Below are positions 9,338 through 29,481 of a stretch of DNA of 37,257 nt, one piece after another. The notes under the pieces are model-generated. The model was not told the DNA's origin, did no database searches, and saw nothing but the letters and a program-made list of their open reading frames with translations. The translations under genes were made by a program, and so were the position numbers. The stretch lies in the sequence record SRR31156797_9628. The stretch is one strand, 5' to 3'. Positions within the stretch are counted from its first letter, which is position 1. Each line of letters opens with the position of its first letter.

Positions 9338-9341
9338 GGAG

Positions 9342-10235: not shown

Positions 10236-10241
10236 CTTGCT

Positions 10242-12702: not shown

Positions 12703-14310
12703 TTGTATAGAATCGAAAGCAAAATCGACCCGCATTCCCCGGAGTTTATTCAAAACAAAAACAATTTCCTGGACCTGATGAAGACTTACCGCGGACGGCT
12801 GCGGCAGGTACGAAAAGGGGGCTCGCCTTCATCCGTTGAACGGCATAAGAAACGTGGTAAACTTCTGGCTCGCGAAAGAATAGACCTTTTGATAGACCAG
12901 AATACGCCTTTCCTGGAATTGTCAACACTGGCTGCCTGGGGAACACACGATGATCAATTCCCGTCTGCAGGAATAGTTACCGGTATCGGGATCGTTCATG
13001 GTCGCGAAACAATGATTGTAGCAAACGATGCCACTGTTAAAGGCGGAACCTATGTGGCCGAAACCATCAAAAAGCATGTACGGGCACAACAGATCGCTAT
13101 CGAAAATCACCTGCCTTGTGTGTATATGGTTGATTCGGGTGGGATTTTCCTGCCGGAACAGTCCAAAGTATTTGCTGATCGTTTCGACTTTGGCAGGTTT
13201 TTTTATAATCAGTCTCAGCTTTCAGCAATGGGCGTTCCACAAATTGCCATTGTGATGGGGTCGTGTACGGCAGGTGGGGCATATGTTCCTGCTATGAGTG
13301 ATGAAACTATCATTGTTAAAAAACAGGGGACCATTTTTATTGGAGGCCCTCCTTTGGTTAAAGCAGCAACAGGTGTTGAAGTTTCGGCCGAAGAGCTGGG
13401 TGGTGCCGATGTGCACACTTCCATTTCAGGAGTTGCAGATCATTATGCTGAAAACGATCGTCATGCGATTCAGATATGCAGAAATATTTTCCAAAATCTT
13501 GAATATAAACAGAAGCAAATACTGGACATTTCACCAATAGAGGAGCCGTATTACGATCCGGAAGAGCTTTACGGCATTGCACCCACAGACCTGCGTAAAC
13601 CTGTCGACTCAAAAGAGATTATCGCCAGGATGGTCGATGGAAGCCGGTTCCATGAGTTCAAAGCACGATATGCACCGACACTGGTCACCGGTTTTGCCAA
13701 CATCATGGGATATCCCATCGGCATCATTGCGAATAATGGTGTTTTGTTTTCTGAATCTTCATTGAAAGGAGCGCACTTTATCGAGCTCTGTGCGATTAGG
13801 AAAATTCCAATTTTATACCTGCAAAATATAACCGGTTTCATTGTTGGGAAGGAATATGAGCGTGGCGGCATTGCCCGCGATGGAGCCAAGTTTGTGCATG
13901 CCACCGCCAATGCTGCTGTACCCAAATTCTCTGTGGTTTTTGGTGGTTCTTTTGGTGCAGGGAATTATGCCATGGCCGGCCGGGCCTACGATCCAAGGTT
14001 GTTGTTCATGTGGCCCAATTCAAAAATATCAGTAATGGGAGGAGAGCAGGCTTCCAATGTTTTGATCCAGGTAAAAGAAGATCAACTCAGAGCCAAAGGC
14101 GAGGAACTGGATGATAAGGTCAGGGAGTCGATGCGGGAGAAAATCCTCAAAAAATATGAAGAAGAAGGCTCAGCCTATTATTCTACTGCCCGAATCTGGG
14201 ATGATGGAATAATCGACCCTGTGGATACCCGGAAAGTACTGGCAATGGGCATTGCGGCGTCACTTAATAAAAAGTTTGAAGACAGTAAGTTTGGCGTGTA
14301 CAGGATGTAA
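12703..14310 (+). CDS. liuB: 3-methylcrotonyl-CoA carboxylase, carboxyltransferase (beta) subunit
   Basis: ANDATVKGGTY, DSGG.FLP.Q, GSCTAGGAYVPAM, LQNITGFIVG, GGSFGAGNYAM.GRAY.PR, ARIWDDGIIDP, FGVYRM. TTG start; pathway context agrees. Confidence 0.92.
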   Translation: MYRIESKIDPHSPEFIQNKNNFLDLMKTYRGRLRQVRKGGSPSSVERHKKRGKLLARERIDLLIDQNTPFLELSTLAAWGTHDDQFPSAGIVTGIGIVHGRETMIVANDATVKGGTYVAETIKKHVRAQQIAIENHLPCVYMVDSGGIFLPEQSKVFADRFDFGRFFYNQSQLSAMGVPQIAIVMGSCTAGGAYVPAMSDETIIVKKQGTIFIGGPPLVKAATGVEVSAEELGGADVHTSISGVADHYAENDRHAIQICRNIFQNLEYKQKQILDISPIEEPYYDPEELYGIAPTDLRKPVDSKEIIARMVDGSRFHEFKARYAPTLVTGFANIMGYPIGIIANNGVLFSESSLKGAHFIELCAIRKIPILYLQNITGFIVGKEYERGGIARDGAKFVHATANAAVPKFSVVFGGSFGAGNYAMAGRAYDPRLLFMWPNSKISVMGGEQASNVLIQVKEDQLRAKGEELDDKVRESMREKILKKYEEEGSAYYSTARIWDDGIIDPVDTRKVLAMGIAASLNKKFEDSKFGVYRM

Positions 14311-14367
14311 GGAGTTGTGAGTTCACCACGCCGAAGGCGGTTTTTGAGTCGTGAGTTGAGAAGTTAG
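14311..14367 (+). repeat. Short heptamer-like repeats (tgagttg variants) around a cgcc-gaa-ggcg hairpin followed by a T run
   Basis: ggagttgtgagtt...cgccgaaggcg (14329-14339) gtttttgagtcgtgagttgagaagtta, directly after the liuB stop codon. Confidence 0.55.
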
Positions 14368-14401
14368 TGTTACATGTTTCGAAAGGTTTTAGCAGATTAA
14401 T

Positions 14402-15484
14402 ATGAGGCTATTGAGGATAATTGGTATGGTTTTGATAACTTTTGGAGGATTACTATTCTCAGCCTTTTCTATTGCTCAAACATCCCCTGATTTAGAAACC
14501 TGGATTTTTCAAAGGGTTCAGGAACCCAACGAAAATGCTTTTAGTTTACGCATTCCTAAAGATTGGCGAACCGATGGAGGTATTTACCGGATCGATCCAA
14601 CTACAGGTGGCGGATCAGGCAATGCCATCGATGCCAAAGTCGATTTTTCAATCATGAGTGATGAATCCGGGGAAGTGATGATTCGTTTCCTGCCTGACAT
14701 GTACTATTTTGATATGCGCTACTCTCCAGCAGGGCAGATGGGCATGTATCCACCCGGAAGCAATTACAACGGCATGTTGGTTTCGCCGTTTCAGAATGCC
14801 GGAAGTTTTGTTCAGAATATTGTGATTCCTTATGTGCATCCAAACCTCGCTACCTATGATGTGATTGACTCCCGAAATTCACCAGAACTGATTGACTATA
14901 CCAGGAAAGAGGATGCCTACACTGGAATTCCATTCATATATGATGCCGGCGTGGTTGAGATTTCTTATGAAGAAAACGGAATCAATTATCATGAAGCCAT
15001 CATTGCGGTAACACAGGATTTTGGACAGGTAGGTGCCGGGTTATGGAAGAACAGGCACACATTTTTTGTTCGTGCACCTGAGCGGGATTTCGATAGCTGG
15101 GCGCCCATTTTTGGTGTGATCATAAATTCCTTGAACATAAATATGAACTGGTTCATTGGTGAAATTCGTGGACAGGTAGAACGGGGCCAGATCAGTGCTG
15201 AGGTTTTGAGGAGGTTGCAACAAATGGATTCTGAAATCACCAATCATCAGGCCCAAACCAATGCACAGATCAATAATGACATGTTTCTCAACCTGACCGG
15301 ACAGGAGGAATATGTGAATCCTTATTCTAACAAAATTGAAACGGGAACCAACGCATGGAATTACCGCTGGATCAATCAGGACGATGAAGTGATTTATACC
15401 GATGACATAAACTACAATCCCAACCAGGATCAAATCCTGAGCAGGGATGATTACAAATTAACGCCTGTTAAAAACAAAAAATAG
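14402..15484 (+). CDS. Hypothetical exported protein
   Basis: 360-aa ORF; signal peptide ending SIA-Q; a Q/N-rich helical segment followed by a YVNPY...W..RW...IYTDD..YNPN C-terminal motif. No family recognised. Confidence 0.75.
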   Translation: MRLLRIIGMVLITFGGLLFSAFSIAQTSPDLETWIFQRVQEPNENAFSLRIPKDWRTDGGIYRIDPTTGGGSGNAIDAKVDFSIMSDESGEVMIRFLPDMYYFDMRYSPAGQMGMYPPGSNYNGMLVSPFQNAGSFVQNIVIPYVHPNLATYDVIDSRNSPELIDYTRKEDAYTGIPFIYDAGVVEISYEENGINYHEAIIAVTQDFGQVGAGLWKNRHTFFVRAPERDFDSWAPIFGVIINSLNINMNWFIGEIRGQVERGQISAEVLRRLQQMDSEITNHQAQTNAQINNDMFLNLTGQEEYVNPYSNKIETGTNAWNYRWINQDDEVIYTDDINYNPNQDQILSRDDYKLTPVKNKK

Positions 15485-15526
15485 GGCGCCACAAAATTTT
15501 TTAATTAATAAACTTAAATACTGCTA

Positions 15527-16630
15527 ATGACTACTAAAAATTCACAATCCATATCGAAATCTGAAAAACGATTTTACGCTAACAAAATGAATGCTTTCTT
15601 ATCTCGTACAGACGCACGGCAGTGCGTCTCTGCCATTCTTATTGCAATCTTTTTTTTGATTCAATTACAACCCTTGATGGCCCAGGACACTTTCTCCATC
15701 ATTGCCGTGGATACGGTGACCGGCGAAATTGGCGGTGCGGGAGCTTCATGTATCGATGAAAATGCAATACCTACAGGGGTTTTGATTATCAACGATATTT
15801 TACCTGGTACTGGTGGAATTCATACGCAGTCCTACTGGCTTGCTGCGAACCAGCAAAATGCCCGTCAAAAGATGGAAGAAGGGCTTTCACCCCAGGAGAT
15901 CATCGACTGGTTGGTGGAAAATGATGTGCAGAATAATCCGGGAATCCGGCAATACGGTATTGTGGATACTGACGAGGATGGGCACCCTCGAAGTGCTGCC
16001 TTTACCGGAAACAATTGCTTTGACTATAAAGATCACATCACCGGGCCCAATTATGCTATCCAGGGAAATATTTTACTGGGACAGCAGATTCTTGATTCCA
16101 TCGAAGCCCGCTTTCTGAATACCGAAGGTTCGCTGGCCGAAAAACTAATGGCTGCCCTGCAGGGAGCCAATGTTCCTGGCGCCGATACCCGCTGCCTGAA
16201 TGAGGGGACCTCGTCACTCTCTGCTTTTGTGCGTGTTGCCAAAGCCGATGCTTTTCCGGGTGACTGGTGGTGCGATCTGCTGGTGCCATCCACACCCTAT
16301 GGTGTTGAACCAATCGATTCGTTGCAGGTATTGTTTGATAACTGGCTCATCTGGACCGGAACCGAAGACGAACCTTTTGTGCAGCCAAATCGTGCAACCG
16401 TTTATCCCAATCCGGGAAATCAAAGCATTACGCTTTCCATTGGAAAAATTTCTGGCGTTAAAGACCTGAGTGTGCAGATTTTTAATATGCAGGGAAGTTT
16501 AATTCAATCGGTTAAATTAAATGGTAAGTCTGTCGAAATAGATTGTTCTGGTTACAGGAGCGGAATGTATTTGTTTAAATTGATAGGGGATGGTCTGCCA
16601 CTGGATGCCGGAAAAATAAACATTGAATAG
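15527..16630 (+). CDS. DUF1028-family Ntn-hydrolase-like protein with T9SS type A sorting domain
   Basis: TFSIIAVD..TGEIG, RQYGIVD, AAFTG..C, AIQGNIL.G and LAEKLMAALQ are DUF1028 hallmarks. CTD VYPNP...IFNMQG...SGMYLFKL...KINIE. Start uncertain (15527 or 15587). Confidence 0.85.
   Translation: MTTKNSQSISKSEKRFYANKMNAFLSRTDARQCVSAILIAIFFLIQLQPLMAQDTFSIIAVDTVTGEIGGAGASCIDENAIPTGVLIINDILPGTGGIHTQSYWLAANQQNARQKMEEGLSPQEIIDWLVENDVQNNPGIRQYGIVDTDEDGHPRSAAFTGNNCFDYKDHITGPNYAIQGNILLGQQILDSIEARFLNTEGSLAEKLMAALQGANVPGADTRCLNEGTSSLSAFVRVAKADAFPGDWWCDLLVPSTPYGVEPIDSLQVLFDNWLIWTGTEDEPFVQPNRATVYPNPGNQSITLSIGKISGVKDLSVQIFNMQGSLIQSVKLNGKSVEIDCSGYRSGMYLFKLIGDGLPLDAGKINIE
15606..15633. repeat. REP-like palindrome inside the coding sequence
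   Basis: gtac-agacgcac-ggca-gtgcgtct-ctgc; shares the gcacggc(c/a)gtgc core with the repeats at 17484-17609. Confidence 0.6.
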
Positions 16631-16653
16631 AATCTTTCGCTAAACATATTTTC

Positions 16654-17442
16654 ATGAAAACATATCAAACCATCGAATTTGAAGTAAAAGAAGATATTGG
16701 CATTGTGTGGCTCAACCGGCCAAAAATTCACAACGCCTTTAATGAAGTGATGATCTCGGAAGTGCTCGACATTTTTACCGAAGTTAACAAAATGGATGAG
16801 ATCAGAGTTGTAATGCTACGGGGTCGCGGCAAATCTTTCTGTGCCGGCGCAGACCTAAACTGGATGGGTGGTGTGGCCGGCTACACTTACGAGCAAAACT
16901 ACGCTGAAAGCCTCAACCTCTCCAAATGCTTTTATGCCATTTACAAGTGTGCCAAGCCCACCATGGCTGTGGTGCATGGAGCTGCTATCGGCGGAGCAAA
17001 CGGGTTACTGGCTGCCTGCGATTTTGCTTACGCTGACGATAACACCACTTTTTCACTGAGCGAAGTAAAAATCGGGATTGTGCCGGCATGCATCTCTCCC
17101 TATGTCACCAAAAGGGTAGGAGAGTATGGCTCAAAAGAGTTGATGCTGACAGGAAAACGCTTTAAGGGCCCTGAGGCTGAAAAACACAAGCTGGTCAACA
17201 AATCGCTTCCCCCGGAACTCCTCGAAGCACACCTCGACTCAGTAGTGAAGCTGCTCCGCACCAGCGGCCCAAAAGCCATGACCCACTGTAAAAATCTTAT
17301 TTACGAAATCTCAAACAAGCTAACCCTGGATGACGCCATCACATACACTGCCAAAATGATCGCCGAAATCCGCGCATCCGATGAAGGCCAGGAGGGCATG
17401 GATGCATTTCTGAATAAACGCAAACCGAATTGGGTGGAGTGA
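16654..17442 (+). CDS. liuC: Methylglutaconyl-CoA hydratase (crotonase family)
   Basis: LNRP..HNAFN, FCAGADL.WM, GAAIGGANGL.AACD, FSLSEVKIG.VPA.ISPYV, EGQEGM.AFL.KRKP.W. Adjacent to the MCC subunits. Confidence 0.88.
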   Translation: MKTYQTIEFEVKEDIGIVWLNRPKIHNAFNEVMISEVLDIFTEVNKMDEIRVVMLRGRGKSFCAGADLNWMGGVAGYTYEQNYAESLNLSKCFYAIYKCAKPTMAVVHGAAIGGANGLLAACDFAYADDNTTFSLSEVKIGIVPACISPYVTKRVGEYGSKELMLTGKRFKGPEAEKHKLVNKSLPPELLEAHLDSVVKLLRTSGPKAMTHCKNLIYEISNKLTLDDAITYTAKMIAEIRASDEGQEGMDAFLNKRKPNWVE

Positions 17443-17483
17443 TGGATATGACTGCTATGGATACAGGCTTTGGCGGGCATGAA

Positions 17484-17609
17484 AAGCCGCACGGCCGTGC
17501 GGCTTAAAAGGCAAGCAGGGTTGGGGTGACATACGAACGCGCGCAGCCGTGCGGCTCAGAAGGCACCGCAGGGTGGGAAGGGTATGTAAAGCCGCACGGC
17601 CGTGCGGCT
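17484..17609. repeat. Three REP-like GC-rich palindromes at ~52-53 bp period
   Basis: aagccgcacggccgtgcggctt 17484-17505 (perfect 22 bp), a degenerate copy at 17536-17557, and agccgcacggccgtgcggct 17590-17609 (perfect 20 bp). Confidence 0.85.
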
Positions 17610-17672
17610 CCGTATGCCAGCCTCCCCACAGGCCATAAAAACTATAAGAAAACATAAAATAAAACTTACTAC

Positions 17673-19685
17673 ATGTCAATGAAAAGCAGACTCTTCGATA
17701 AAATCCTCATCGCCAACCGGGGTGAAATTGCCATCCGCATTATGCGGGCAGCAAAAGCTTTGAACATCAGAACCGTCGCTGTTTATGCTGAGGTAGATAA
17801 AGACTCCTGGCATGTTTCCTTTGCCGATGAAGCCTATTGCCTTGGTGAACAGGAACTGGCCGACACCTACCTGAATGTTGATAAAATCATTGAAATAGCA
17901 AGAGATGCCGGGGCTGACGCAATCCATCCGGGTTACGGTTTTCTTTCGGAGAACCCAACACTGGTTGAAGCCTGCGAAAAAAGCGGGATCGTTTTCATTG
18001 GCCCGGATACCCGTGCAATTACCTTGATGGGAAACAAAATCGAATCCAGGGCTTTTGTGCAGGAGTTGAAAGTGCCCACTACCCAGGGCGTAACGGGTGA
18101 TGCCAAAAAGCTAATCGCTGAGGCTGAAAAGATTCCAATGCCAATTCTCGTTAAAGCAGCTGCAGGAGGCGGTGGAAAAGGCATGCGGATTGCCAGGGAT
18201 TTAAAGGATCTTCCTGAAATCATTGAAACCACCCAGCGTGAAGCCCTATCTTATTTTGGTGACGGAACCGTGTTTGTGGAAAAATACGTTGAAGAGCCCC
18301 GCCATATCGAAATACAGGTTATGGGCGACAAGCACGGAAATGCAGTTCATTTGTTTGAACGCGAATGTTCCATCCAGCGGCGTTATCAGAAAATAATTGA
18401 AGAATCTCCCTCCCCAACCTTAAACGATGAAGTTCGTCATAAAATGGGTGAAGCGGCAGTTAAAATTACTAAAGCTATCGGCTACAGCAATGCCGGAACC
18501 ATCGAATTTTTGGTGGATAAAAACCTGGATTTCTATTTCCTGGAGATGAATACCCGGATCCAGGTGGAGCATCCTGTTACCGAAATGGTTACCGGAGTTG
18601 ACCTGGTTCAGGAGCAAATCTCTGTTGCTGCAGGCAATCCTTTAAGCTTTGCCCAGGAAGATATCTTGCAAAGCGGCCATGCCATCGAGTGCAGGGTCTA
18701 TGCCGAGGATCCTGCCAACAACTTTTTGCCTTCTCCCGGGCAGATGATTTTTTACAGGGAGCCACACAATCACAGAGTTCGGATCGACGCATGCACAAAT
18801 AAGGCTGCAACAATCCATAGCTTTTACGATCCCATGATCGCAAAGGTTATTGTTTGGGAAAATGACCGCGAACACGCACGTCGGAAAATGATTGATGTGC
18901 TGAAAGATTACATCAGCCATGGCATAAAAACCAATATCAGGTTTCTGATCGAACTGCTTCAGGAGAAAAACTATATCGAAAATACAATTTCCACAAAATT
19001 TTGTGATGATCATCTGGATGAACTGGTAAAGGCTTCTGAAGAAAAGCGGGGAAATATCGTAAATGATGCCCCCATTACAGCTTATGTTTTGTACTATCTC
19101 AAGTTTAATGAAGATGCCGAAAAACCTGATATCTGGCACCAGATCGGATACTGGCGTGATGTGATTGAATTTAACCTGAAAATGGATGAGGATGATTACG
19201 ATGTGATTGTTTACCACCTGAATAAAAACCTTTCGCGCGTAATTATTGATGACCGCGAGTATGTTGTTGAAACCCCACATCTTACAAAAAACGAAGTCAC
19301 CATCAAATCAAAGGAAGGTATTTTCAGAGCTGTGATCTCGCATGATAGGTTGGGTAATGCTTTTGTGAGCGTTAATGGTCATATTTTCAACATTCATCGT
19401 GATGATTTGTTGATCAAAGAGGACGTGTACACCGGCATCGACAGTCCCGACGGAGGGGGAGACGGCCTGATTTTTACCCCAATGCCCGGTAAGGTAGTGA
19501 AGGTAAATGTGAAACCTGGTGATGATGTCACCAAAGGCGCAGTCCTTTTGATCGTTGAAGCCATGAAAATGGAAAACAACATCGTTGCCCCTCGGGAGGG
19601 TAAGATTGAAAAGGTGAATGTGAAGGCCGGCAAAATGGTTGATGGAAGTCAGCCGCTGATGGTCATGGCAGAAGGTGAGGGTTAA
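17673..19685 (+). CDS. liuD: 3-methylcrotonyl-CoA carboxylase, biotin carboxylase/biotin carrier (alpha) subunit
   Basis: ILIANRGEIA, HPGYGFLSEN, GGGGKGMR, RECSIQRRYQK, EMNTRIQVEH, and C-terminal biotinyl EAMKM. Start 17673 or 17679. Confidence 0.9.
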   Translation: MSMKSRLFDKILIANRGEIAIRIMRAAKALNIRTVAVYAEVDKDSWHVSFADEAYCLGEQELADTYLNVDKIIEIARDAGADAIHPGYGFLSENPTLVEACEKSGIVFIGPDTRAITLMGNKIESRAFVQELKVPTTQGVTGDAKKLIAEAEKIPMPILVKAAAGGGGKGMRIARDLKDLPEIIETTQREALSYFGDGTVFVEKYVEEPRHIEIQVMGDKHGNAVHLFERECSIQRRYQKIIEESPSPTLNDEVRHKMGEAAVKITKAIGYSNAGTIEFLVDKNLDFYFLEMNTRIQVEHPVTEMVTGVDLVQEQISVAAGNPLSFAQEDILQSGHAIECRVYAEDPANNFLPSPGQMIFYREPHNHRVRIDACTNKAATIHSFYDPMIAKVIVWENDREHARRKMIDVLKDYISHGIKTNIRFLIELLQEKNYIENTISTKFCDDHLDELVKASEEKRGNIVNDAPITAYVLYYLKFNEDAEKPDIWHQIGYWRDVIEFNLKMDEDDYDVIVYHLNKNLSRVIIDDREYVVETPHLTKNEVTIKSKEGIFRAVISHDRLGNAFVSVNGHIFNIHRDDLLIKEDVYTGIDSPDGGGDGLIFTPMPGKVVKVNVKPGDDVTKGAVLLIVEAMKMENNIVAPREGKIEKVNVKAGKMVDGSQPLMVMAEGEG

Positions 19686-19769
19686 TTTTTAATTGTGAAT
19701 AGAATAAGTACCCCAAAAAATAATAATTATCGAATACCTGGTAACAAATAACCAAAAACCTTATTAGAT

Positions 19770-20918
19770 ATGGACTTTGAATTAACAGATGATCAAAAAA
19801 TGATTCGCGAGGCTGTTCGCGATTTTGCCGAAAGAGAGATCCGGCCTGTAGCTCAGGAGCTGGACGAAAAGGCAGAGTTTTCCCCTGAACTCACCAGAAA
19901 AATGGGTGAGCTTGGATTATTCGGAATGTATCTCCCGGAAAAATATGGTGGTCAAGGCATGGATACACTGGCATATATCATTGCTGTGGAAGAAGTTTCA
20001 CGTGTTGATGGCAGCCAGGGAGCAACGCTTGCAGCGCACAATTCGCTGGGTATTGGCCCATTATACTATTATGGCACCGAAGCGCAAAAAATGAAATATC
20101 TCCCACAGCTTTGCACCGGCGAAGCACTTTGGGGATTTGGCCTCACCGAACCCAATGCCGGCTCCGATTCCAGGGGAACAAAAACCACTGCTGCAATTGA
20201 AGGAGACGAATGGGTGATCAACGGATCAAAAATTTTCATTACCAATGGTTCAGCAGATATTTCTGTTGGTTCAGCGGTTCAGGCCGTGACAAAAACACAT
20301 GACAACGGAAAAAAAGAATATACTACGATCATAGTTGAAAAGGATACACCGGGTTTTAAGCGGGTTTCGATGCATGGTAAAATGATGTGGCGGGCATCTG
20401 ATACTGCAGAATTGTATTTTGATGATTGCCGCGTGCCAAAAGAAAACCTGCTAGGCGAAGTGGGAAAGGGCTCAAAAATAATGCTTTCAACGCTGGATAA
20501 TGGCAGGCTTTCGATCGCAGCCATGGGGCTTGGAGCGGCCCAGGGGGCTTTTGATCTGGCTATGCAATATGCTCAGGAAAGACATCAGTTTGGTAAGCCC
20601 ATTTCGAAATTTCAGATCAATGCTTTCAAACTGGCCGATATGGCCACAAAAATCGAACATGCCCGTTGGTTCCTATACCGGGCCTGCTGGCTGAAAGACA
20701 ATAATAAACCCTTTGCAAAGGAAGCAGCCATGGCAAAACTGCATTGCTCAGAAATTGCCAGGGAAGTAGCTGATGAAGCAGTTCAGATTCACGGTGGATA
20801 CGGATTAATGAAGGATTATGATGTGGAAAGAATTTACCGCGACCAGCGCTTGCTCCAGATTGGTGAAGGAACCTCAGAAATACAGAGGTTGGTAATATCA
20901 CGACATTTGGGATTATAA
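19770..20918 (+). CDS. Acyl-CoA dehydrogenase, probably isovaleryl-CoA dehydrogenase function by context
   Basis: FGLTEPNAGSD, INGSKIFITNG, R.QFGKPI, AVQIHGGYG, QIGEGTSEIQR. Confidence 0.9.
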   Translation: MDFELTDDQKMIREAVRDFAEREIRPVAQELDEKAEFSPELTRKMGELGLFGMYLPEKYGGQGMDTLAYIIAVEEVSRVDGSQGATLAAHNSLGIGPLYYYGTEAQKMKYLPQLCTGEALWGFGLTEPNAGSDSRGTKTTAAIEGDEWVINGSKIFITNGSADISVGSAVQAVTKTHDNGKKEYTTIIVEKDTPGFKRVSMHGKMMWRASDTAELYFDDCRVPKENLLGEVGKGSKIMLSTLDNGRLSIAAMGLGAAQGAFDLAMQYAQERHQFGKPISKFQINAFKLADMATKIEHARWFLYRACWLKDNNKPFAKEAAMAKLHCSEIAREVADEAVQIHGGYGLMKDYDVERIYRDQRLLQIGEGTSEIQRLVISRHLGL

Positions 20919-20950
20919 AATCCCAACTAAACAAATTAAAAATTACAATT

Positions 20951-21142: not shown

Positions 21143-21181
21143 TTCAAACCAGTAGTTTTTTAAAACCTAATATCAAGAACA

Positions 21182-23122
21182 ATGGCTGAAAAAATGCTAT
21201 GGAAACCCAAACCTGATAAAGCGAAAAAATCACAGATGTGGGAGTTTCTTCAGCTGGTGCATAAAAAATATGATTTGGCTGCAGCAGATTACGCTCATCT
21301 GCATGCATGGAGTGTTAAAGCTCCCACGGAGTTTTGGGGTGAGTTCTGGAAATATGCTGGTGTAACACACGACAAAGAATTTGAGACTGTTGTGGATGAT
21401 GCCCATAAAATGCCCGGAGCCAAATGGTTCAAGGGGGCCAGACTAAATTATGCTGAAAACCTGCTGAAATACCGGGGCGGAAAAACAGCTATAATATTCA
21501 GTGGCGAAAATGGTACAGATCGACGGATTTCGAGGAATGAGTTGTACACTGAGGTTAAAAGAGTTGCTGATGGATTAAAAATGCTGGGTGTAAAAAAAGG
21601 TGATTGTGTGGCAGGATTTATGCCCAATATCCCGGAAACAGTAATTGCCATGTTGGCAACATCTTCCATCGGGGCGATCTGGTCATCCTCATCACCTGAT
21701 TTTGGGATCAAAGGGGTGCTCGACCGGTTTTCGCAGATCGAACCCAAGGTTGTTTTTTCGGCAGATGGCTATTTCTACAACGGAAAACAATTCGATTCGC
21801 AGGAGAAGCTCAAAGGAATTCTTGAGAAACTTCCTTCTGTTGAAAAAGTCGTGCTCATAAATTACTCTGGAAAAAGGGATATTACTAAAATTGACAAAGC
21901 TGTTGCCTGGGAAGGCTTCGGCAATGCCAATGCTCCCGAATTATCGTTTGAACAGCTTCCCTTCGATCACCCGCTTTACATCATGTATTCTTCCGGGACC
22001 ACTGGACTACCCAAAAGTATTGTTCATTCAGCCGGTGGTACGCTGATCCAGCACCTTAAAGAATTACGATTGCATTGCGACCTGACCGAAGAGGACACCA
22101 TTTTTTATTTTACCACCTGTGGCTGGATGATGTGGAACTGGGTGGTGAGCAGCCTTGCTGTTGGTTCAACGCTGGTGCTTTTTGATGGCAACCCTTTCCA
22201 TCCGTCTCCTGATGCCTTGCTAAAAATGGCTGATGAACTGGATATTACCATTTTTGGGACGAGCGCAAAATACATTGCATCACTGGAAGATGCTGAAGTT
22301 AAACCCAAAGAAATTTCATCATTTCCCAAACTCAAAGCCATCACAAGCACAGGCTCCCCACTATCCAACGAAAGCTTTGAATACGTTTACCGGGATTGGA
22401 AAGCTGATGTACAGCTTTCTTCAATAGCCGGAGGGACAGATATCATTTCCTGTTTTATTCTCGGAAATCCTTTGCTTCCGGTTTATCGGGGTGAAATACA
22501 ATGTGCCGGCCTGGGCATGGATGTTGATTGCTTTGATGACATGGGTAGGTCGATCCGGAATGAAAAGGGCGAATTGGTGTGCAAGACCGCTTTTCCTTCC
22601 ATGCCGGTTTACTTCTGGAATGACAAGGATGGGAAGAAATATCACAAAGCTTACTTTGAGGTCTATGATAACATTTGGCACCATGGCGATTATATTGTAA
22701 TGAGTAACTATGGTGGCGTTACCATGTATGGCCGTTCTGATGCCACACTCAACCCTGGCGGTGTAAGAATTGGTACGGCCGAAATTTACAATGTGGTTGA
22801 AAATATGGATGAGGTTGCAGATTCTGTGATTGTTGGGCAGCAGCATGATGGTGATGAAAGAGTGGTTTTATTTGTGAAGCTAAACCAGGGAATAACCCTG
22901 GGTGATGATCTGGTAAAGAAAATCAGGACAAATATCAGGAAGGGATGCAGCCCTCGACATGTTCCTGCTATCATCAAGGAAGTAACAGATGTTCCTTATA
23001 CCTTAAACGGAAAAAAAGTTGAAGTAGCTGTGAAGAAAATCATTCACGGGGAAGATGTGCTAAATCGCGATGCTTTGAAAAACCCGGAATCATTGGATCA
23101 GTTCGTTAGCATTTTGAAATAA
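21182..23122 (+). CDS. Acetoacetate--CoA ligase (acetoacetyl-CoA synthetase)
   Basis: WF.GARLNYAENLL, SPDFG..GVLDRF.QIEPK, YSSGTTGLPK.IVH, TTCGWMMWNW, GGTDIISCF, GRSDATLNPGGVRIGTAEIY, TLNGKKVE. Confidence 0.93.
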   Translation: MAEKMLWKPKPDKAKKSQMWEFLQLVHKKYDLAAADYAHLHAWSVKAPTEFWGEFWKYAGVTHDKEFETVVDDAHKMPGAKWFKGARLNYAENLLKYRGGKTAIIFSGENGTDRRISRNELYTEVKRVADGLKMLGVKKGDCVAGFMPNIPETVIAMLATSSIGAIWSSSSPDFGIKGVLDRFSQIEPKVVFSADGYFYNGKQFDSQEKLKGILEKLPSVEKVVLINYSGKRDITKIDKAVAWEGFGNANAPELSFEQLPFDHPLYIMYSSGTTGLPKSIVHSAGGTLIQHLKELRLHCDLTEEDTIFYFTTCGWMMWNWVVSSLAVGSTLVLFDGNPFHPSPDALLKMADELDITIFGTSAKYIASLEDAEVKPKEISSFPKLKAITSTGSPLSNESFEYVYRDWKADVQLSSIAGGTDIISCFILGNPLLPVYRGEIQCAGLGMDVDCFDDMGRSIRNEKGELVCKTAFPSMPVYFWNDKDGKKYHKAYFEVYDNIWHHGDYIVMSNYGGVTMYGRSDATLNPGGVRIGTAEIYNVVENMDEVADSVIVGQQHDGDERVVLFVKLNQGITLGDDLVKKIRTNIRKGCSPRHVPAIIKEVTDVPYTLNGKKVEVAVKKIIHGEDVLNRDALKNPESLDQFVSILK

Positions 23123-23204
23123 TTAACTATATTAGCTTGTTGAATTTTAGCTAATAGTTTAACATAATAAGGAGAATATAATCGTATTAATAAGACACTA
23201 ACCT

Positions 23205-24215
23205 ATGAAATATCCAAAAAAAGTTGTTGTTGGAGATATCACTGTGAGGGATGGCTTCCAACATGAAGAAATTTTTATTCCTACTCGGGCCAAACTTTGG
23301 CTTGCCGAGGAACTGCTGTTGGCAGGATTTAAGCATATCGAGGTAACCAATTTTGGAAATCCTAAGGGAATGCCCCAATTTGCCGATGCTGATGAGCTGT
23401 TTAAATTGATCAGGGCCAGTAAACGGGTTAAGCATTTACTGGATGATGCCATGCTTACAGCCATTACCATTCGTGAACGATCGGTACAGCGTGCCATCGA
23501 TGCCAAAATTGCAGGATACGGCCCCGACAGGATTTTGCTAATGGTATCTACCAGCGAATCACACCAAAAGAAAAATTCAGGTCTCACCATTGATGAATAC
23601 TGGAAGATGAGCGAAGAATGGGTGAAAAAAGCCCGCGATGCCGGCCTTGCTGTTAACGGAACGGTAAGCACAATTTGGGGCTGCCCAATTGAAGGCCCTA
23701 CCGAAATGAAAAAAGCTATTGAGTTTACAAAGCGTTGGTTTGATATTGGAGCAACAGATGTGGAGCATGCCGATCATGATGGATCAGCATCTCCGGATAG
23801 GGTTTATCGATATTTTTCTGACCTTCTTGATAATGTGGATAATCCTGAAAAACAAATCGCACACTTCCACACCACCCGAGGTTGGGGATTGGCAAATGTT
23901 TTAGCTGCGCTTCAGGCAGGCATGACAAACTATGAGGCTACTATGGGAGGCCTGGGCGGACAACCGGCAAATTTTGTAAGCGGCGTTCCGGTGCCCGGAA
24001 CTGGGGATTATTATTACAAAGATCCTTCGGATGTTGGGCTTGTTTCTACCGAAGACATGGTGGTTATGATGGATGAAATGGGCATCGAAACCAACCTGGA
24101 TATCGACAGAATTCTGGAGATTGGAAAAATGGTTGAAAAGATTGTTGGCCGGAAGCTACGCTCCGAGTCTATCAGGAATGGCCGAATACCAAAAGAAATG
24201 TCTGGACGTGCTTAA
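23205..24215 (+). CDS. HMG-CoA lyase family (DRE-TIM metallolyase) enzyme, probably the LiuE-equivalent step
   Basis: RDGFQHE, STSESHQKKN, STIWGCPIEG, metal-binding HFHTTRG, STEDMVVM. Last gene of the cluster. Lacks the GGCP cysteine. Confidence 0.8.
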   Translation: MKYPKKVVVGDITVRDGFQHEEIFIPTRAKLWLAEELLLAGFKHIEVTNFGNPKGMPQFADADELFKLIRASKRVKHLLDDAMLTAITIRERSVQRAIDAKIAGYGPDRILLMVSTSESHQKKNSGLTIDEYWKMSEEWVKKARDAGLAVNGTVSTIWGCPIEGPTEMKKAIEFTKRWFDIGATDVEHADHDGSASPDRVYRYFSDLLDNVDNPEKQIAHFHTTRGWGLANVLAALQAGMTNYEATMGGLGGQPANFVSGVPVPGTGDYYYKDPSDVGLVSTEDMVVMMDEMGIETNLDIDRILEIGKMVEKIVGRKLRSESIRNGRIPKEMSGRA

Positions 24216-24233
24216 GAGAATTCACACTAAAAT

Positions 24234-24270
24234 AAAATCCCCGGTTCGTCATTGAAACGGGGTTTTTTTT
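24234..24270. terminator. Probable bidirectional intrinsic terminator between convergent genes
   Basis: aaaatccccggttcg-tcat-tgaaacggggtttttttt: imperfect stem with A and T tracts on either side. Confidence 0.7.
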
Positions 24271-24893
24271 TACTTCCTGAGTTTATCATATTTAAAATGC
24301 TCTTCGCTAAATGGCAATGAATTTACATCTGACTTAAAGGCAAGCCAGTCAAGGATTTTAATGGCCAACTCCCGGTTCAGATTCATAATTTCATATTCAA
24401 ATACAACCTTTACCCTTGGAAATCCATCATCGAGAATTTTTTCTTTTTTACTGTCATCGGTTACGAGACGTGTCTTGGCCAGGTAATCATCCCTGATCTC
24501 GATTTCAGCAAAATTCATTTTTTTTGAGACATTAAAATGAACAGACCTGATATGTTTATAGTGCTGACGCTTAACAAAAGGAAATGAAGTGGTTTTTACG
24601 ATCTTATCCAGGCTCTCTGACGTTGAAGCAAAATAGAGGTGATTATCGAGTTTCGATTCTTTATTTTTGAAATCAATGACATTCCAGGGCAGTTTTTTCT
24701 CGTTGGGAAGGTTATTGGCACGTGAGCATAAATCGAAAAAAACGGCTATGAATTCCTCGTATGCTTTTTTGTTGGCTTTGTAGTTCTCCCTGATCCTGAA
24801 AATTTTATCCTGTACCTTCGCACTTTCGCGCGAAGGTTTCTCCCGCTTTCTTTGTTCTTCTCTTTCCGCTTCTTCTAACCAGTGTGACATCAA
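24270..24893 (-). CDS. Hypothetical cytoplasmic protein (charged, N-terminal helical region)
   Basis: 207-aa ORF 37 nt downstream of the buk-like gene on the same strand. No signal peptide or recognisable motif. Confidence 0.7.
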   Translation of the reverse strand: MMSHWLEEAEREEQRKREKPSRESAKVQDKIFRIRENYKANKKAYEEFIAVFFDLCSRANNLPNEKKLPWNVIDFKNKESKLDNHLYFASTSESLDKIVKTTSFPFVKRQHYKHIRSVHFNVSKKMNFAEIEIRDDYLAKTRLVTDDSKKEKILDDGFPRVKVVFEYEIMNLNRELAIKILDWLAFKSDVNSLPFSEEHFKYDKLRK

Positions 24894-24930
24894 TAGTATT
24901 TTTGTAGATTATTATAGATCGAAAAATAAA

Positions 24931-26001
24931 TTATTTATACTCAAGTATTTCAGCTTCCTCTTTCATGATCATCATGGCGCTATCGGCCAGTGCATCCATA
25001 TCAGAAACAAATGGAGAAATAATTATGTTGCCAAGTTTCAGAATGCGTTTCTTTACTTCGTCGGTAAATAGTTTGGATTGGAAAATGTTTCCTGAAAGTA
25101 TGATCGCTTCTATGGGATCTTCCAGGGCAACATACATGGAGCCAATTTCCTTGGAGAGCTGGTATGCCATGGCTTTGATTATGAATTCTGCTTTCTTGTC
25201 GCCTTCCTTAATGCGGCTTTCGATGAGGTTGATATTTGAAGTTCCCAGGTGTCCATAAAGGCCGCCTTCGTGAACAAGCATTTTACGCAATTGTGCGCGT
25301 TCATATTTTCCGCTGTAACAAAGGTCAATCAGATCGCCGTAAGGAATGGAGCCGGCGCGGCTGTAGGAAAAAGGCCCCTCACCATCATAAGCCTGGTTTA
25401 CGTCTACTACTTTTCCTTTTCGGTGTGCGCCAACTGAAATCCCTCCTTCGCCTACATGTGCGATTATGAGATTCAGTTCTTCATATTGCTGGTTTACAGA
25501 CTTTGCATAGTTGCGGCCTGCAAATTTATGGTTAAGGGCATGGAAAATAGATTTCCTTTCAAACATGGGATGACCGCTTACACGGGCAATATCGTCAAGT
25601 TCGTCAACCACCACCGGATCAGCTAAAAATGCCCTTGCATTTGGAATCATTGTAGCAATATGGTCGGCGATGAGGCCACCCAGGTTGGTTTCGTGCATCT
25701 TGCTTTCCTGGCGAAGATCATTTTTGAGTGCATCATTTATTTCATAAACGCCTGACGCAATCGGCTTTATCAGTCCACCTCTTCCAATCACAATTTCAAT
25801 CTCCTCCATCCTGATGTCATTTTCTTTCAACTCCGCAAGAATCTGATCTGTACGTGGTGTTTCCTGTTTTAGTACATCCTGGTCGTAAAGTTTCGGATCT
25901 ATTTTAATGGTTTTGAAAAATACCCAACTGTTGTTTTGGAAAACGGCGATTTTGGTATCATAAACCTGAGGGTAAATTACTAGGATTTTCCTGGTCAGCA
26001 T
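24931..26001 (-). CDS. buk: Butyrate kinase homologue (ASKHA acetokinase family) with degenerate nucleotide-binding motifs
   Basis: GRGGLIKPI.SGVY.IN, NLGG.IA, DPVVVDEL..IARVSG.P..ERKSIFHALNHK, GISVGAH.KGKVVDVN, GEGPFS..RAG and AMAYQLSKEIG are Buk-specific. NPGSTST, TGG and GEDE motifs are altered. Confidence 0.8.
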   Translation of the reverse strand: MLTRKILVIYPQVYDTKIAVFQNNSWVFFKTIKIDPKLYDQDVLKQETPRTDQILAELKENDIRMEEIEIVIGRGGLIKPIASGVYEINDALKNDLRQESKMHETNLGGLIADHIATMIPNARAFLADPVVVDELDDIARVSGHPMFERKSIFHALNHKFAGRNYAKSVNQQYEELNLIIAHVGEGGISVGAHRKGKVVDVNQAYDGEGPFSYSRAGSIPYGDLIDLCYSGKYERAQLRKMLVHEGGLYGHLGTSNINLIESRIKEGDKKAEFIIKAMAYQLSKEIGSMYVALEDPIEAIILSGNIFQSKLFTDEVKKRILKLGNIIISPFVSDMDALADSAMMIMKEEAEILEYK

Positions 26002-26042
26002 TTTATCAAGTTTTCGTTTGATTCACTAAAAAATTTGGCGGT

Positions 26043-26050
26043 CAAAAATA
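26043..26050 (-). promoter_or_regulatory. -7 box (TATTTTTG) upstream of the buk-like gene
   Basis: + strand caaaaata equals TAnnTTTG on the - strand, ~40 nt upstream of the start codon. Confidence 0.5.
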
Positions 26051-26070
26051 TAAATATTTTATGTCGCGAT

Positions 26071-29000
26071 TTACATATTGCGCCGATACTTTCCGCCCAC
26101 TTCAAATAACGCATCGCTGATTTGCCCCAGTGAGGCATATTTTGAAACCTCCATCAGGCTTTCAAAAATATTGTGGTTATGCAATGCTGCATCTTTTAAG
26201 GTCTCCATATTTTCTTCAACTTCTTTTTGATAGGTCTTATGAAGCTCGCTTAACATTGAAATCTGGTACTCCTTTTCAGCTTTTGTGGCCCTGATCACTT
26301 CTCCTGGAATTACAGTAGGTGAACCTTTGGAAGAGAGGTAGGTGTTTACGCCAACAATGGGCAGTTTGCCTGTGTGTTTCATGGATTCATAATACAACGA
26401 CTCTTCCTGGATTTTACTGCGCTGGTACATGGTTTCCATCGCGCCAAGTACACCGCCACGCTCGGTAATGCGATCAAATTCTGAAAGAACGGCTTCTTCA
26501 ACCAGGTCGGTCAATTCTTCAATGATAAACGAACCCTGTAGCGGATTCTGGTTTTTGGCCAGCCCAAGTTCCTTGTTTATGATCATCTGTATGGCAATGG
26601 CACGGCGCACAGAATCTTCGGTGGGTGTGGTGATGGCCTCATCGTAGGCGTTTGTATGCAATGAATTACAATTGTCATAGATGGCGTAAAGTGCCTGGAG
26701 TGTGGTCCGGATATCGTTAAAATCGATTTCCTGTGCGTGTAAGGAACGGCCGGAAGTTTGAATATGATATTTCAATTTTTGGGAACGTTCATCTGCGCCG
26801 TATTTTAGTTTCATGGCTTTCGACCAGATCAATCTGGCAACGCGGCCCATCACGGAGTATTCAGGATCAATTCCATTGGAGAAGAAGAATGACAGGTTGG
26901 GTGCAAATTTACTGATGTCCATACCGCGACTGGCGTAATATTCCACGTAAGTGAAACCATTGGCCAGCGTAAACGCCAACTGGGAAATTGGGTTGGCACC
27001 GGCTTCTGCGATATGGTATCCCGATATGGAAACCGAATAAAAATTCCGCACATTGTTGTTGATAAAATATTCCTGGACATCACCCATCACTTTTAAGGAG
27101 AAATCGGTAGAGAAAATGCAGGTGTTCTGGGCCTGATCTTCTTTCAAAATGTCGGCCTGGATGGTGCCCCGAACTATACAAATGGTGTCCTTTTTTATCT
27201 TTTCATAAACGTCTTTTGGCAGTACCTGGTCACCGGTAACGCCAAGCAGCATCAGGCCAAGGCCGTCATTTCCCTTTGGTAGACTTCCCTGGTATTCGGG
27301 CCGTTTGGTTCCCCGTTTTTTATAAATGGATTTAATTTTCTTTTCAACCTCAGCTTCCAGGCCGTGCTCTTTAATATAAAGTTCACATTGCTGATCGATG
27401 GCCGCATTCATAAAAAAGCCGACCATTGTAGGCGCCGGGCCATTGATGGTCATAGAAACGGAAGTTTTAGGGTCAGCCAGGTTGAAGCCGGAGTACAGTT
27501 TCTTGGCATCATCCAGGCAGCAAATCGAAACACCTGAATTTCCTATTTTTCCGTAGATATCCGGACGCCTGTCGGGGTCGCGGCCATAGAGGGTAACCGA
27601 ATCAAATGCCGTAGAAAGCCTGCGGGCGGGCATGTCGTAAGAAACATAATGGAAACGTTTGTTCGTACGTTCAGGACCGCCTTCACCGGCAAACATCCGC
27701 GTTGGATCTTCACCTTCCCGCTTGAATGGAAATACGCCGGCAGCAAACGGGAATTCTCCCGGTACATTCTCCCGCAGGTTCCATTTCAGGATATCTCCCC
27801 ATCCGGTGTATTTGGGCAGGCTGATCCTGGGTATTTGCAAATGTGATAATGATTCTGTGGAGGTCTCAACACAAATATCCTTTCCGCGCACTTTATAGCA
27901 AAATACTTTCTCCTGCAATGCGGTTTTTTTACCTTCCCAATCATCAAGAATTTTTTTGTTGTGTGGATCCAGGTTGAGGACTGTTTTATCGTAAATCCCC
28001 TTGATGGCATCGGCAACCTCTTCATTGCCGTGTTCCCTGGCCATTTTTATGGATTCGTCAAGCGCGAAAAGTTTTTGAGCGATTTCACGCTGCTCCTCGG
28101 TCCATGAATTGTAATTTCTCACAGTTTCGGAAATCTCGGAAAGATATCTGACCCTTTTTGGTGGAATGATGAAAATCTTTTCGGACATCTCCTCGGTGAT
28201 CACCATATTTGATTTCAGATCTGCCCCGGTTTTCTCAACGATTTTTTCCATCAATGCCTTGTAAAGTGCATTGGTGCCCGGATCGTTAAATTGTGAAGCG
28301 ATTGATCCATAAACCGGCATGTCGTCAGGTTCCTGATCAAAGAGCTGATGGTTTCGTTGATATTGTTTTTTTACATCGCGCAGAGCATCCAGAGAACCCC
28401 GTTTGTCGAATTTATTTAAGGCAATAATATCGGCAAAATCCAGCATGTCAATCTTTTCAAGCTGTGTGGCAGCTCCGTATTCCGGAGTCATCACATACAT
28501 CGATACATCGCTGTGATCAACGATGGCCGTGTCGCTTTGGCCTATCCCGGAAGTTTCCAGAATGATAAGATCAAAACCGGCAATTTTCATTAGACAAACG
28601 GCATCCTTCACATAATTCGACATGGACAGGTTGGCCTGGCGGGTTGCAAGCGAGCGCATATAAATCCGGGAGTCGTTGATGGAGTTCATCCTGATCCTGT
28701 CGCCAAGTAAAGCCCCGCCGGTTTTTCGTTTTGAGGGATCTACCGAAACAATCGCAATGGATTTGTCCGGAAAGTCTTCCAGAAACCTGCGAACCATTTC
28801 ATCCACCAGTGAGGATTTTCCGGCTCCTCCCGTACCTGTAATGCCTAAAACCGGGATTTCCGTTTTGCATTCATTCACATGATTTTGGATAAAATCAGCA
28901 GTGCCGTTGGGGAAGTTTTCAACCGCTGAAATCACCTGCGACAGGTGTACCACATTTTTGTTCCTGATTTTGCCAATATCAGGTGAAATATTTTTTCCAG

Positions 29001-29439
29001 TGGGATGGTCCGACTTTTTAAGCAGGTCGTTGATCATCCCCTGCAGTCCCATGGAGCGCCCATCATCAGGCGAATAGATTCTTGCAATGCCATATTCATG
29101 CAATTCGGCGGCTTCCTCGGGGAGGATTACGCCACCGCCGCCACCAAAGATTTTTATATGGCCGGCGCCTTTTTCTTTGAGCAGATCATACATGTATTTG
29201 AAATACTCAATGTGTCCACCCTGGTAGGATGTTATGGCCACAGATTGGGCATCTTCCTGGATAGCACAATCCACGATCTCCTGCACAGAGCGGTCGTGGC
29301 CAAGATGGATCACCTCAGCACCCGATGACTGGATAATCCTGCGCATAACATTTATGGCTGCATCGTGCCCGTCGAAAAGAGAAGCAGCTGTGACTATTCT
29401 GACTTTGTTTTTGGGTTTGTAGATTTTTGGTGCCTGCAT
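26071..29439 (-). CDS. icmF: Fused isobutyryl-CoA mutase IcmF (B12-binding domain + MeaB-like GTPase + mutase barrel)
   Basis: N-terminal [13 protein letters not shown] cobalamin motif; [19 protein letters not shown] and NKFD of the G-protein; [40 protein letters not shown] and [11 protein letters not shown] of the mutase. 1122 aa ending YRRNM. Confidence 0.95.
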
Positions 29440-29473: not shown

Positions 29474-29481
29474 CAAAGATA
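29474..29481 (-). promoter_or_regulatory. -7 box (TATCTTTG) of the icmF promoter
   Basis: + strand caaagata equals TAnnTTTG on the - strand, 35 nt upstream of ATG, with a TTG 20 nt further upstream. Confidence 0.6.

Follow-up and report, generated by a model that had tools for sequence, protein, structure and literature searches.

The 37,257-nucleotide stretch from sequence record SRR31156797_9628 (called the window below, meaning the stretch at its full length) carries, between positions 12,703 and 29,439, two sets of genes that run towards each other. The plus-strand set resembles the liu genes of leucine catabolism. The minus-strand unit consists of icmF, for a B12-dependent isobutyryl-coenzyme A (CoA) mutase, a gene for an atypical butyrate-kinase paralogue (buk-like) and a gene for a conserved protein of 207 amino acids (aa) that falls in no family (unk207). 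We propose, with moderate confidence and from comparison of sequences, that the two units may well form one conserved catabolic module for short branched-chain acyl-CoAs in a lineage of mostly uncultured Bacteroidales. The main argument for such a functional tie is that icmF and liu genes stay close to each other through many rearrangements. An earlier note on this DNA had described the icmF unit as meeting the liu set at a shared terminator. Open reading frame listing and family scans recovered every gene that it named, and a hairpin with a run of T lies between the converging stop codons:

12703-14310, + strand: acyl-CoA carboxylase carboxyltransferase subunit, resembling the methylcrotonyl-CoA carboxylase (MCC) beta subunit, at the head of the liu-like set (PF01039, 495 bits)
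14402-15484, + strand: 360-aa family-less protein with a signal-peptide-like N-terminus (open reading frame and family scans)
15527-16630, + strand: DUF1028 protein (PF06267, 117 bits) with a type IX secretion system (T9SS) C-terminal sorting domain (PF18962)
16654-17442, + strand: enoyl-CoA hydratase of the crotonase family, methylglutaconyl-CoA hydratase-like (PF00378, 172 bits)
17673-19685, + strand: biotin carboxylase with biotin carrier domain, MCC-alpha-like (Biotin_carb_N, CPSase_L_D2, Biotin_carb_C, Biotin_lipoyl)
19770-20918, + strand: acyl-CoA dehydrogenase of butyryl-CoA dehydrogenase/short-chain type, a candidate for isovaleryl-CoA and butyryl-CoA
21182-23122, + strand: acetoacetate-CoA ligase (AACS; TIGR01217, 923.6 bits, cut-off 520.9)
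23205-24215, + strand: 336-aa protein resembling hydroxymethylglutaryl-CoA (HMG-CoA) lyase (PF00682, 121 bits)
24238-24272, both strands: hairpin and T-run, terminator-like for both strands (read from the sequence and its fold)
24270-24893, - strand: unk207, 207-aa family-less conserved protein, last gene of the icmF unit
24931-26001, - strand: buk-like, atypical butyrate-kinase paralogue (TIGR02707, 379.2 bits, cut-off 289.1)
26071-29439, - strand: IcmF (NF045497, 1764.6 bits, cut-off 1500)

Gaps between genes measured 23-263 bp on the plus strand and 37 and 69 bp on the minus strand, and 54 bp separate the two converging stop codons. The hairpin in this gap has the stem CCCCG...CGGGG, with an A-rich run before it and nine T after it. 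It folds at -14.7 kcal/mol (z -2.6), and 2 of 200 shuffles were as good; a generic consensus terminator scan did not list it. Family scans of the window revealed no ptb, electron-transfer flavoprotein (ETF), CoA-transferase, thiolase or aminotransferase gene, and ptb was likewise missing by tblastn and by PTA_PTB domain.

Linkage of icmF and liu genes among relatives

Conserved co-occurrence and linkage were observed in an order-level survey, which sampled 301 genomes evenly from the order of G001, the genome that holds the nearest relative (locus L003). The proteins were found as follows:

IcmF: 111 of 301 genomes
MCC-beta type: 138 of 301 genomes
336-aa lyase: 72 of 301 genomes
unk207: 33 of 301 genomes (26 at E < 1e-30)
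buk family: 226 of 301 genomes

The MCC-beta type was present in 95 of the 111 genomes with IcmF and in 43 of the 190 without it, with a tiny p in a Fisher test that ignores kinship between genomes. The 336-aa lyase was accompanied by IcmF in 70 of its 72 genomes, and by the MCC-beta type likewise in 70. Both icmF and the MCC-beta gene stood on one contig in 17 genomes, at a distance of 10 kb or less in eight (G019, G058, G125, G126, G222, G229, G272, G290), of 23-96 kb in seven and of more than 2 Mb in two. When any liu gene was counted that lay no more than 10 kb from icmF or from the genes following it, at least 12 of the 111 IcmF genomes qualified (these eight with G001, G092, G127 and G262). 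Among the matches listed (150 of the 324 for the buk family), at least 18 genomes had a buk-like gene starting no more than 400 bp after icmF. Of the 26 genomes with a strong unk207 match, 14 had unk207 no further than 5.2 kb after icmF.

The arrangement of the genes differed widely. In the following lines MCCa and MCCb stand for the carboxylase subunits, ECH for the hydratase, ACAD for the acyl-CoA dehydrogenase, HMGL for the 336-aa lyase, HMGL2 for a second lyase paralogue and sco for 3-oxoacid CoA-transferase:

Convergent: the window, G001, G092, G222 and G262
G222: MCCb-ECH-[5S-like]-ACAD-HMGL2-AACS-HMGL > < buk-like-icmF
G092: AACS-HMGL alone converge, the other liu genes lying 13 kb off, headed by ptb-buk
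G126: ptb-buk heads the liu operon, with icmF converging
G019 and G290, divergent: MCCb < buk / icmF >
G125, single operon: icmF-MCCb-ECH-MCCa-ACAD-HMGL2-buk
G229: Fe-S/CCG oxidoreductase / icmF-buk-like-etfB-etfA-MCCb-ECH-MCCa-ACAD-scoA-scoB
G058: single operon, co-directional
G002: icmF-buk-like 25 kb from the liu cluster on one 851-kb contig, with an Fe-S/CCG oxidoreductase gene, etfAB and a second dehydrogenase gene 3.4 kb upstream of MCCb

The persistence of close icmF-liu linkage in at least 12 genomes and at least four layouts, single operons included, lends support to the idea of one branched-chain acid module that the earlier note had put forward. In G125 (locus L154), a FabH-like gene for 3-ketoacyl-acyl-carrier-protein synthase III lies upstream of icmF at 807-1883, and a 4HBT thioesterase gene follows the tail buk at 15144-15611; these two genes may provide a link to branched-chain primer supply.

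A survey centred on unk207 gathered 30 metagenome loci with this gene, which together with L003 and the window made 21 lineages at 90% unk207 identity:

Gene directly upstream of unk207: buk-like in 17 of 21 lineages, icmF instead in 3, neither in 1
icmF upstream of unk207 on the same strand: present in 11, absent with enough sequence in 6, not assessable in 4
HMG-CoA-lyase-like or AACS gene converging within 400 bp downstream of unk207: present in 10, absent with enough sequence in 8, not assessable in 3

The convergent junction described for the window thus recurs in 10 of the 21 lineages. An aminotransferase gene, which would allow entry from amino acids, stood inside the cluster in L093, L095 and L104. 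An Fe-S/CCG oxidoreductase gene was divergent from icmF in L003, L026, L116, L118 and G229, and both this gene and ETF genes lay beside icmF or liu genes in these same loci and genomes and in G002. Small genes of the 23S_rRNA_IVP family (PF05635) were inserted at varying points in liu or buk-like/unk207 units of relatives, at L089:10647-11021, L093:9427-9786 and L095:18476-18967.

Outside the window's lineage the picture was different. The first survey covered the best 80 IcmF loci, mostly from Flavobacteriia and Cytophagia, 50 of them with full 10-kb flanks, at a match coverage of at least 50%. A liu gene was near icmF in L003 alone, with two ACAD-like genes in L010, and buk adjoined icmF in L003, L012, L013 and L023 alone. 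Four complete genomes from elsewhere in the Bacteroidota had their nearest MCC-beta-like gene (44-48% identity) ~0.1, 0.29, 0.82 and 1.0 Mb away from icmF; a fifth had no MCC-beta-like gene at E <= 1e-100. An IcmF tree of 94 rows placed all 15 liu-adjacent genes outside a single clade of 66 rows, made up of Flavobacteriia, Cytophagia and others, in which none of the 66 was liu-adjacent (48 of them with full flanks). As surveyed, icmF-liu linkage is absent outside the window's lineage. The earlier note had named missing synteny among relatives as evidence against its proposal: linkage held within the window's lineage and failed in the Flavobacteriia/Cytophagia clade. Coincidence was the favoured reading after the first survey and was overturned by the unk207-centred and order-level surveys.

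Enzymes of the two units and the proposed route

IcmF of the window combines in one chain a B12-binding domain (PF02310, residues 14-117), a MeaB-like GTPase domain (PF03308, 183-371) and a mutase domain (PF01642, 756-1115), and aligns over its full length with the solved Cupriavidus IcmF 4XC6 (1376 bits). The Phe of its RMFAG motif, residue 583 (codon 27691-27693), aligns with the Phe of 4XC6, with the Tyr of methylmalonyl-CoA mutase (human; 2XIJ/8GJU) and with the Ile of 2-hydroxyisobutyryl-CoA mutase 4R3U, in agreement with the earlier assignment of this Phe as the residue typical of isobutyryl-CoA mutases. Among 100 IcmF homologues from the collected loci, operon-embedded ones included, all 100 kept the Phe and an identical HIAEAGAN stretch, and a further stretch of 10 residues was nearly invariant. 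By these sequence motifs, the homologues examined share the substrate site of the characterised isobutyryl-CoA mutase, which is consistent with a conserved C4-type active site. Replacing the Phe reportedly raises the C5 activity of IcmF. In the nearest relative (L003:4436-7679, G001:C164), icmF is read in two or three frames with the B12 domain separate, through either a frameshift or an assembly error, and icmF is separated from buk-like by an insert of ~3.3 kb that holds AAA_15/AAA_21 ATPase, DUF2442 and TPR genes.

In the plus-strand set, domains of both subunits of a biotin-dependent acyl-CoA carboxylase were present, with methylcrotonyl-CoA as the putative substrate. In relatives, liu-like clusters begin with MCC-beta-like orthologues (57-88% identity), and the hydratase gene follows the carboxyltransferase gene. 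The best NCBIfam match of the hydratase was gamma-carboxygeranoyl-CoA hydratase (243 bits, under the cut-off of 426). The biotin-carboxylase slot held an ATP-grasp type protein, as in the window, in 7 of 12 related clusters and a 5S/OadA-like protein in the other five (L137:6267-8441, L141:11151-13334, L157:4518-6698, L152:15250-17421, L090:11123-13204). These replacements, of ~725 aa, have an HMGL-like (5S-type carboxyltransferase), a PYC_OADA and a biotinyl domain. From its domains, the 5S/OadA-like protein may be a transcarboxylase/OadA-alpha-like partner of the MCC-beta-like subunit, which would allow methylcrotonyl-CoA to be carboxylated without ATP.

The dehydrogenase, 68-96% identical in related clusters, had as its best solved matches 5ol2_C (407 bits) and 4l1f (380 bits), deposited as 'acyl-CoA dehydrogenase', which we take to be butyryl-CoA dehydrogenases of clostridial type. 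The next matches, 1jqi (355 bits), 9w60 (353 bits) and 1buc (323 bits), are named short-chain acyl-CoA or butyryl-CoA dehydrogenase. The C-terminal motif reads IGEGTSEI, which presumably places the catalytic Glu as in short/medium-chain enzymes and not as in isovaleryl-CoA dehydrogenase. At the other end of the pathway, AACS is replaced by 3-oxoacid CoA-transferase A/B in L114 (TIGR02429 and TIGR02428, both above cut-off), G126, G229 and G232. This repeated swap between two acetoacetate-activating enzymes argues that acetoacetate is the product of the lyase.

The 336-aa lyase itself scored under the HMG-CoA-lyase cut-off (NF004283, 200.1 bits versus 246). It keeps the R-D and H-x-H motifs (VRDGFQ and HFHTTRG, compared to PRDGLQ and HFHDTRG of Bacillus 1YDO). 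Sources name it 'hydroxymethylglutaryl-CoA lyase' (JGI) or 'pyruvate carboxyltransferase' or 'hypothetical' (NCBI). The paralogue HMGL2, of 284 aa, keeps GGCP and occurs in related genomes, either inside the liu cluster, as in G002, G003, G004, G222, G092, G125 and G272, or at another place in the genome.

Judging from these family assignments, the plus-strand unit would work as follows. The acyl-CoA dehydrogenase would oxidise isovaleryl-CoA, the biotin carboxylase and carboxyltransferase would carboxylate the resulting methylcrotonyl-CoA, and the hydratase would yield HMG-CoA. The HMG-CoA-lyase-type enzyme would then release acetyl-CoA and acetoacetate, which AACS would recapture as acetoacetyl-CoA. 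For the minus-strand unit, the most likely logic is that IcmF converts isobutyryl-CoA, from valine or isobutyrate, to n-butyryl-CoA. This product could be oxidised, with ETF, by the butyryl-CoA-dehydrogenase-like enzyme of the plus-strand unit and would proceed via crotonyl-CoA to acetoacetyl-CoA, so that acetoacetyl-CoA and acetyl-CoA would be the common end products of C4 and C5 branched substrates. Entry of free acids would be through a canonical Ptb-Buk pair whose genes lie elsewhere and, in some relatives, stand at the head of the liu operon. Substrates, flux direction and the role of the buk-like/unk207 pair are what we infer here. The isobutyryl-CoA to butyryl-CoA route fits best with the conserved C4-type IcmF site and with operons that encode both ETF and a butyryl-CoA-dehydrogenase-like enzyme. 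In Streptomyces, valine catabolism is linked to n-butyryl units through isobutyryl-CoA mutase. Genes for 3-hydroxyacyl-CoA dehydrogenase were present in all five relatives searched.

Rather than gut-type fermenters, the carriers appear to be environmental Bacteroidales that respire, because COX1-family (haem-copper oxidase) genes were found in three of four relatives searched and none of 14 control genomes, Bacteroides thetaiotaomicron included, had IcmF above cut-off. By the COX1-family genes, these relatives are not plain fermenters, and the remark in the earlier note that such a locus would be unusual for Bacteroidales-type fermenters is contradicted by the numbers of genomes with the MCC-beta type and IcmF in the order as sampled. 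Its full Liu enzyme set stood in part: the reaction types are all present, with a dehydrogenase resembling butyryl-CoA dehydrogenases, a hydratase under the cut-off of its best-matching family and a lyase without the loop Cys.

Several observations weigh against a single catabolic module. By score the dehydrogenase is nearer to butyryl-CoA/short-chain enzymes, at 323-407 bits, than to isovaleryl-CoA dehydrogenases of solved structure, at 263-277 bits. The lyase has GGLGGQP for the GGLGGCP of 1YDO, with Gln in place of the active-site-loop Cys in 22 of 22 orthologues, as well as an insertion of ~20 residues; this Cys is catalytically important in HMG-CoA lyase. As HMGL2 was also found in four of five related genomes searched, the pathway has two candidate lyases. 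A Thiolase_N search in five relatives returned weak or FabH-like matches only, and the buk-like protein, described below, may not be a kinase at all. As for linkage, most genomes with icmF and MCC-beta carry them on separate contigs, which give no view of linkage; the two genes are >2 Mb apart in G269 and G285, and icmF is 25 kb from liu genes in G002. Related genomes share labels and three changes on the IcmF tree explain the trait, which makes this a clade-level association and not many independent events.

The icmF, buk-like and unk207 genes could also be mainly anabolic or homeostatic, balancing butyryl-, isobutyryl- and isovaleryl-CoA as primers of iso-branched fatty acids or for reductive amino-acid synthesis, and lie near liu genes through common acyl-CoA pools. 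Bacteroidota membranes are rich in iso-branched fatty acids. Such a role would suit the FabH-like and thioesterase genes of G125, a thioesterase gene near icmF-buk-buk in L012, and the 8 of 21 lineages in which unk207 and buk-like occur without nearby liu genes. We nevertheless consider it unlikely, since the FabH adjacency was seen once and the single operons of G229 and G125, which join icmF to ETF, carboxylase, dehydrogenase and acetoacetate-activating genes, look catabolic.

The earlier note had suggested that pivalyl-CoA could be funnelled into the Liu pathway. IcmF would then serve the C5 branch, turning pivalyl-CoA or another tertiary acyl-CoA into isovaleryl-CoA for degradation by the liu enzymes. 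The gene orders of G125, where icmF stands directly before the carboxyltransferase gene, and of G229, where it forms one operon with liu, are compatible with this, and IcmF is reported (PMC10481361) to interconvert pivalyl-CoA and isovaleryl-CoA besides isobutyryl-CoA and n-butyryl-CoA. The C4-type Phe and flanking motifs kept in 100 of 100 IcmFs leave the funnel without support, and an enzyme found in more than a third of the genomes (111 of 301) seems too common for a substrate as rare as pivalate; we regard this role as improbable. That two unrelated units were merely inherited together in a shallow clade would agree with the opposite strands, with the lack of linkage in 50 of 50 full-flank IcmF loci of other Bacteroidota orders (bar the two ACAD-like genes in L010), with the distances of 0.1-1 Mb in four complete genomes and with the sufficiency of three changes on the tree, but such an accident appears very improbable when icmF and liu genes stay close in at least four rearranged layouts, some of them co-directional operons, the buk-like proteins of the rearranged genomes are only 41-55% identical to that of the window, and 70 of 72 lyase genomes also have IcmF.

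A single catabolic module would give IcmF a testable setting. Much work has treated IcmF as an enzyme and chaperone model, while its cellular role is, to our knowledge, still unsettled; the recurring, rearranged neighbourhood would place it in B12-dependent use of branched C4 acids beside leucine/isovalerate. If this is true, many uncultured Bacteroidales would consume, and not merely excrete, branched short-chain acids in a cobalamin-dependent manner. No description of icmF-liu linkage, nor any paper joining 'isobutyryl-CoA mutase' and 'methylcrotonyl-CoA carboxylase', was found in the literature searched, which left subscription journals largely outside. Taken as a whole, the interpretation in the earlier note is partly supported. 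The parts of the locus belong to known families, and three components are uncharacterised, namely the buk-like protein, unk207 and the Cys-less lyase variant, each of which could be resolved by assay.

The butyrate-kinase paralogue and unk207

The buk-like protein is homologous over its full length to Thermotoga Buk2 (1SAZ, 264 bits) and differs from it in each nucleotide-binding motif. PHOSPHATE1 reads YPQVYDTK versus NPGSTSTK in 1SAZ, and PHOSPHATE2 reads HVGEGGIS versus HMG-GGIS, with one extra residue. The ADENOSINE motif is SGNIF, compared to TGGLA in 1SAZ and TGGIG in Salmonella acetate kinase 3SK3. In a set of 45 distinct Buk-family sequences from the collected loci and the window, NPGST was absent from 31 and present in 14. 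The two forms sorted by neighbourhood. Buk-family genes within 5.2 kb downstream of icmF were atypical in 17 of 18 cases, the one canonical gene being the second of a tandem, and all 10 that follow ptb were canonical. In the tree, 27 atypical sequences, that of the window included and all lacking NPGSTSTK, fell on one side of a branch with support 99/96. The second, canonical buk copy was part of a ptb-buk pair in eight of eight genomes checked, and in G003. By sequence, buk-like is an IcmF-linked paralogue with altered ATP-binding motifs, the canonical ptb-buk of relatives lying elsewhere, and the cautious label 'buk-like' given in the earlier note was apt.

Homologues of unk207 numbered 45 (34-87% identity); none had a Pfam domain, and those named by their source were labelled Bacteroidales. 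The gene follows buk-like or icmF in 20 of the 21 dereplicated lineages. An AlphaFold model from a 27-row alignment (predicted local distance difference test score 84.7) has long N-terminal helices packed on an antiparallel sheet. Foldseek returned no match in the PDB at E <= 0.001, and in the ESM Atlas the protein met its own hypothetical-protein cluster and nothing else. The best VIA-align match, frataxin/CyaY-like at Z 6.6, was under the stated background of 7-8, and we assign no fold. A relationship to the DUF6125 protein that follows buk in L023 was rejected (profile comparison probability 0.2%). In G004 (L126:2592-3176, G004:C54), a distant homologue of 30% identity converges on a stand-alone ptb-like gene, which gives a second hint of a role for unk207 in acyl-phosphate/acyl-CoA metabolism.

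We tentatively suggest, as a rather doubtful possibility, that buk-like and unk207 are a dedicated partner pair of IcmF and that the former is not an ordinary ATP kinase. It could be an acyl kinase using pyrophosphate (PPi), phosphate or another donor, or a non-catalytic ASKHA protein that assists the mutase. With IcmF, the pair might open a B12-dependent valine/isobutyrate route in environmental Bacteroidales; this route and leucine catabolism would have the dehydrogenase, ETF and the acetoacetyl-CoA end point in common.

Surroundings of the units and known counterparts

The plus-strand catabolic set is interrupted by two genes for secreted proteins (14402-16630) that the earlier note did not mention. 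The 360-aa protein had no Pfam or NCBIfam match and no tblastn match in any related locus; from this distribution, its gene appears to be a lineage-specific insertion in the cluster. The DUF1028 gene has a counterpart, 59% identical, in the same slot between carboxyltransferase and hydratase of the distant metagenome locus L114; genes for secreted proteins are odd company for a cytoplasmic pathway. Beyond icmF and divergent from it, a 2345-aa T9SS-sorted protein with Peptidase_C39_2-like, CarboxypepD_reg and GEVED domains is encoded at 29719-36756, and a gene 53% identical to it adjoins buk-like in L093, where icmF is missing. On the other side, at 8124-11525, an ECF-type sigma factor gene is followed in the same orientation by three genes for proteins of 224, 297 and 427 aa that fall in no family. 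All four are upstream of the liu set and of a gene resembling an NAD-epimerase.

Sigma-70-type promoter and terminator scans of the window gave no excess over shuffles. The motif TAnnTTTG, which we take to be the Bacteroidota-type promoter motif, had 32 matches in the window versus 33 expected; those at 29474-29481, 35-42 nt upstream of icmF, and at 26043-26050, upstream of buk-like, are only suggestions. An Rfam scan of the window returned no family at threshold, and thus no cobalamin riboswitch was found there.

Compared with the Pseudomonas liu cluster and the mitochondrial leucine pathway, the window has the same reaction types, with an acyl-CoA dehydrogenase, a two-subunit biotin-dependent carboxylase, a hydratase and an HMG-CoA-lyase-type enzyme. 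It differs in that the dehydrogenase resembles butyryl-CoA more than isovaleryl-CoA dehydrogenases, the lyase has Gln for Cys, AACS is built in and two secreted-protein genes are inserted. The IcmF of Cupriavidus metallidurans (4XC6 and related structures) has the same three-part architecture, with an identical RMFAG Phe and identical neighbouring substrate-site motifs, whereas icmF of the window, whose product is known from sequence, is followed by a remodelled butyrate-kinase paralogue and unk207 and is linked to a leucine-catabolic cluster.

With Thermotoga maritima butyrate kinase 2 (1SAZ, 1X9J) and the ptb-buk operons, buk-like shares full-length homology and passes the TIGR02707 cut-off, but all three of its nucleotide motifs are changed and its gene has no adjacent ptb. 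The loop changes have a parallel in the PPi-dependent acetate kinase of Entamoeba histolytica. In PMC5517563, the PHOSPHATE2 motif of that enzyme is described as one residue longer than in ATP-dependent enzymes, and Gln-Met as replacing the conserved Gly-Ile of its ADENOSINE motif. The buk-like protein likewise has a longer PHOSPHATE2 and an amide residue for the ADENOSINE Gly: in the alignment with the Salmonella acetate kinase, its Asn stands opposite the second Gly of TGGIGEN, the position of the Gln in Entamoeba. The two proteins differ in that buk-like belongs to the butyrate, not the acetate, kinase subfamily and has PHOSPHATE1 changed as well. We offer the parallel between the loop changes of buk-like and the Entamoeba enzyme as a lead.

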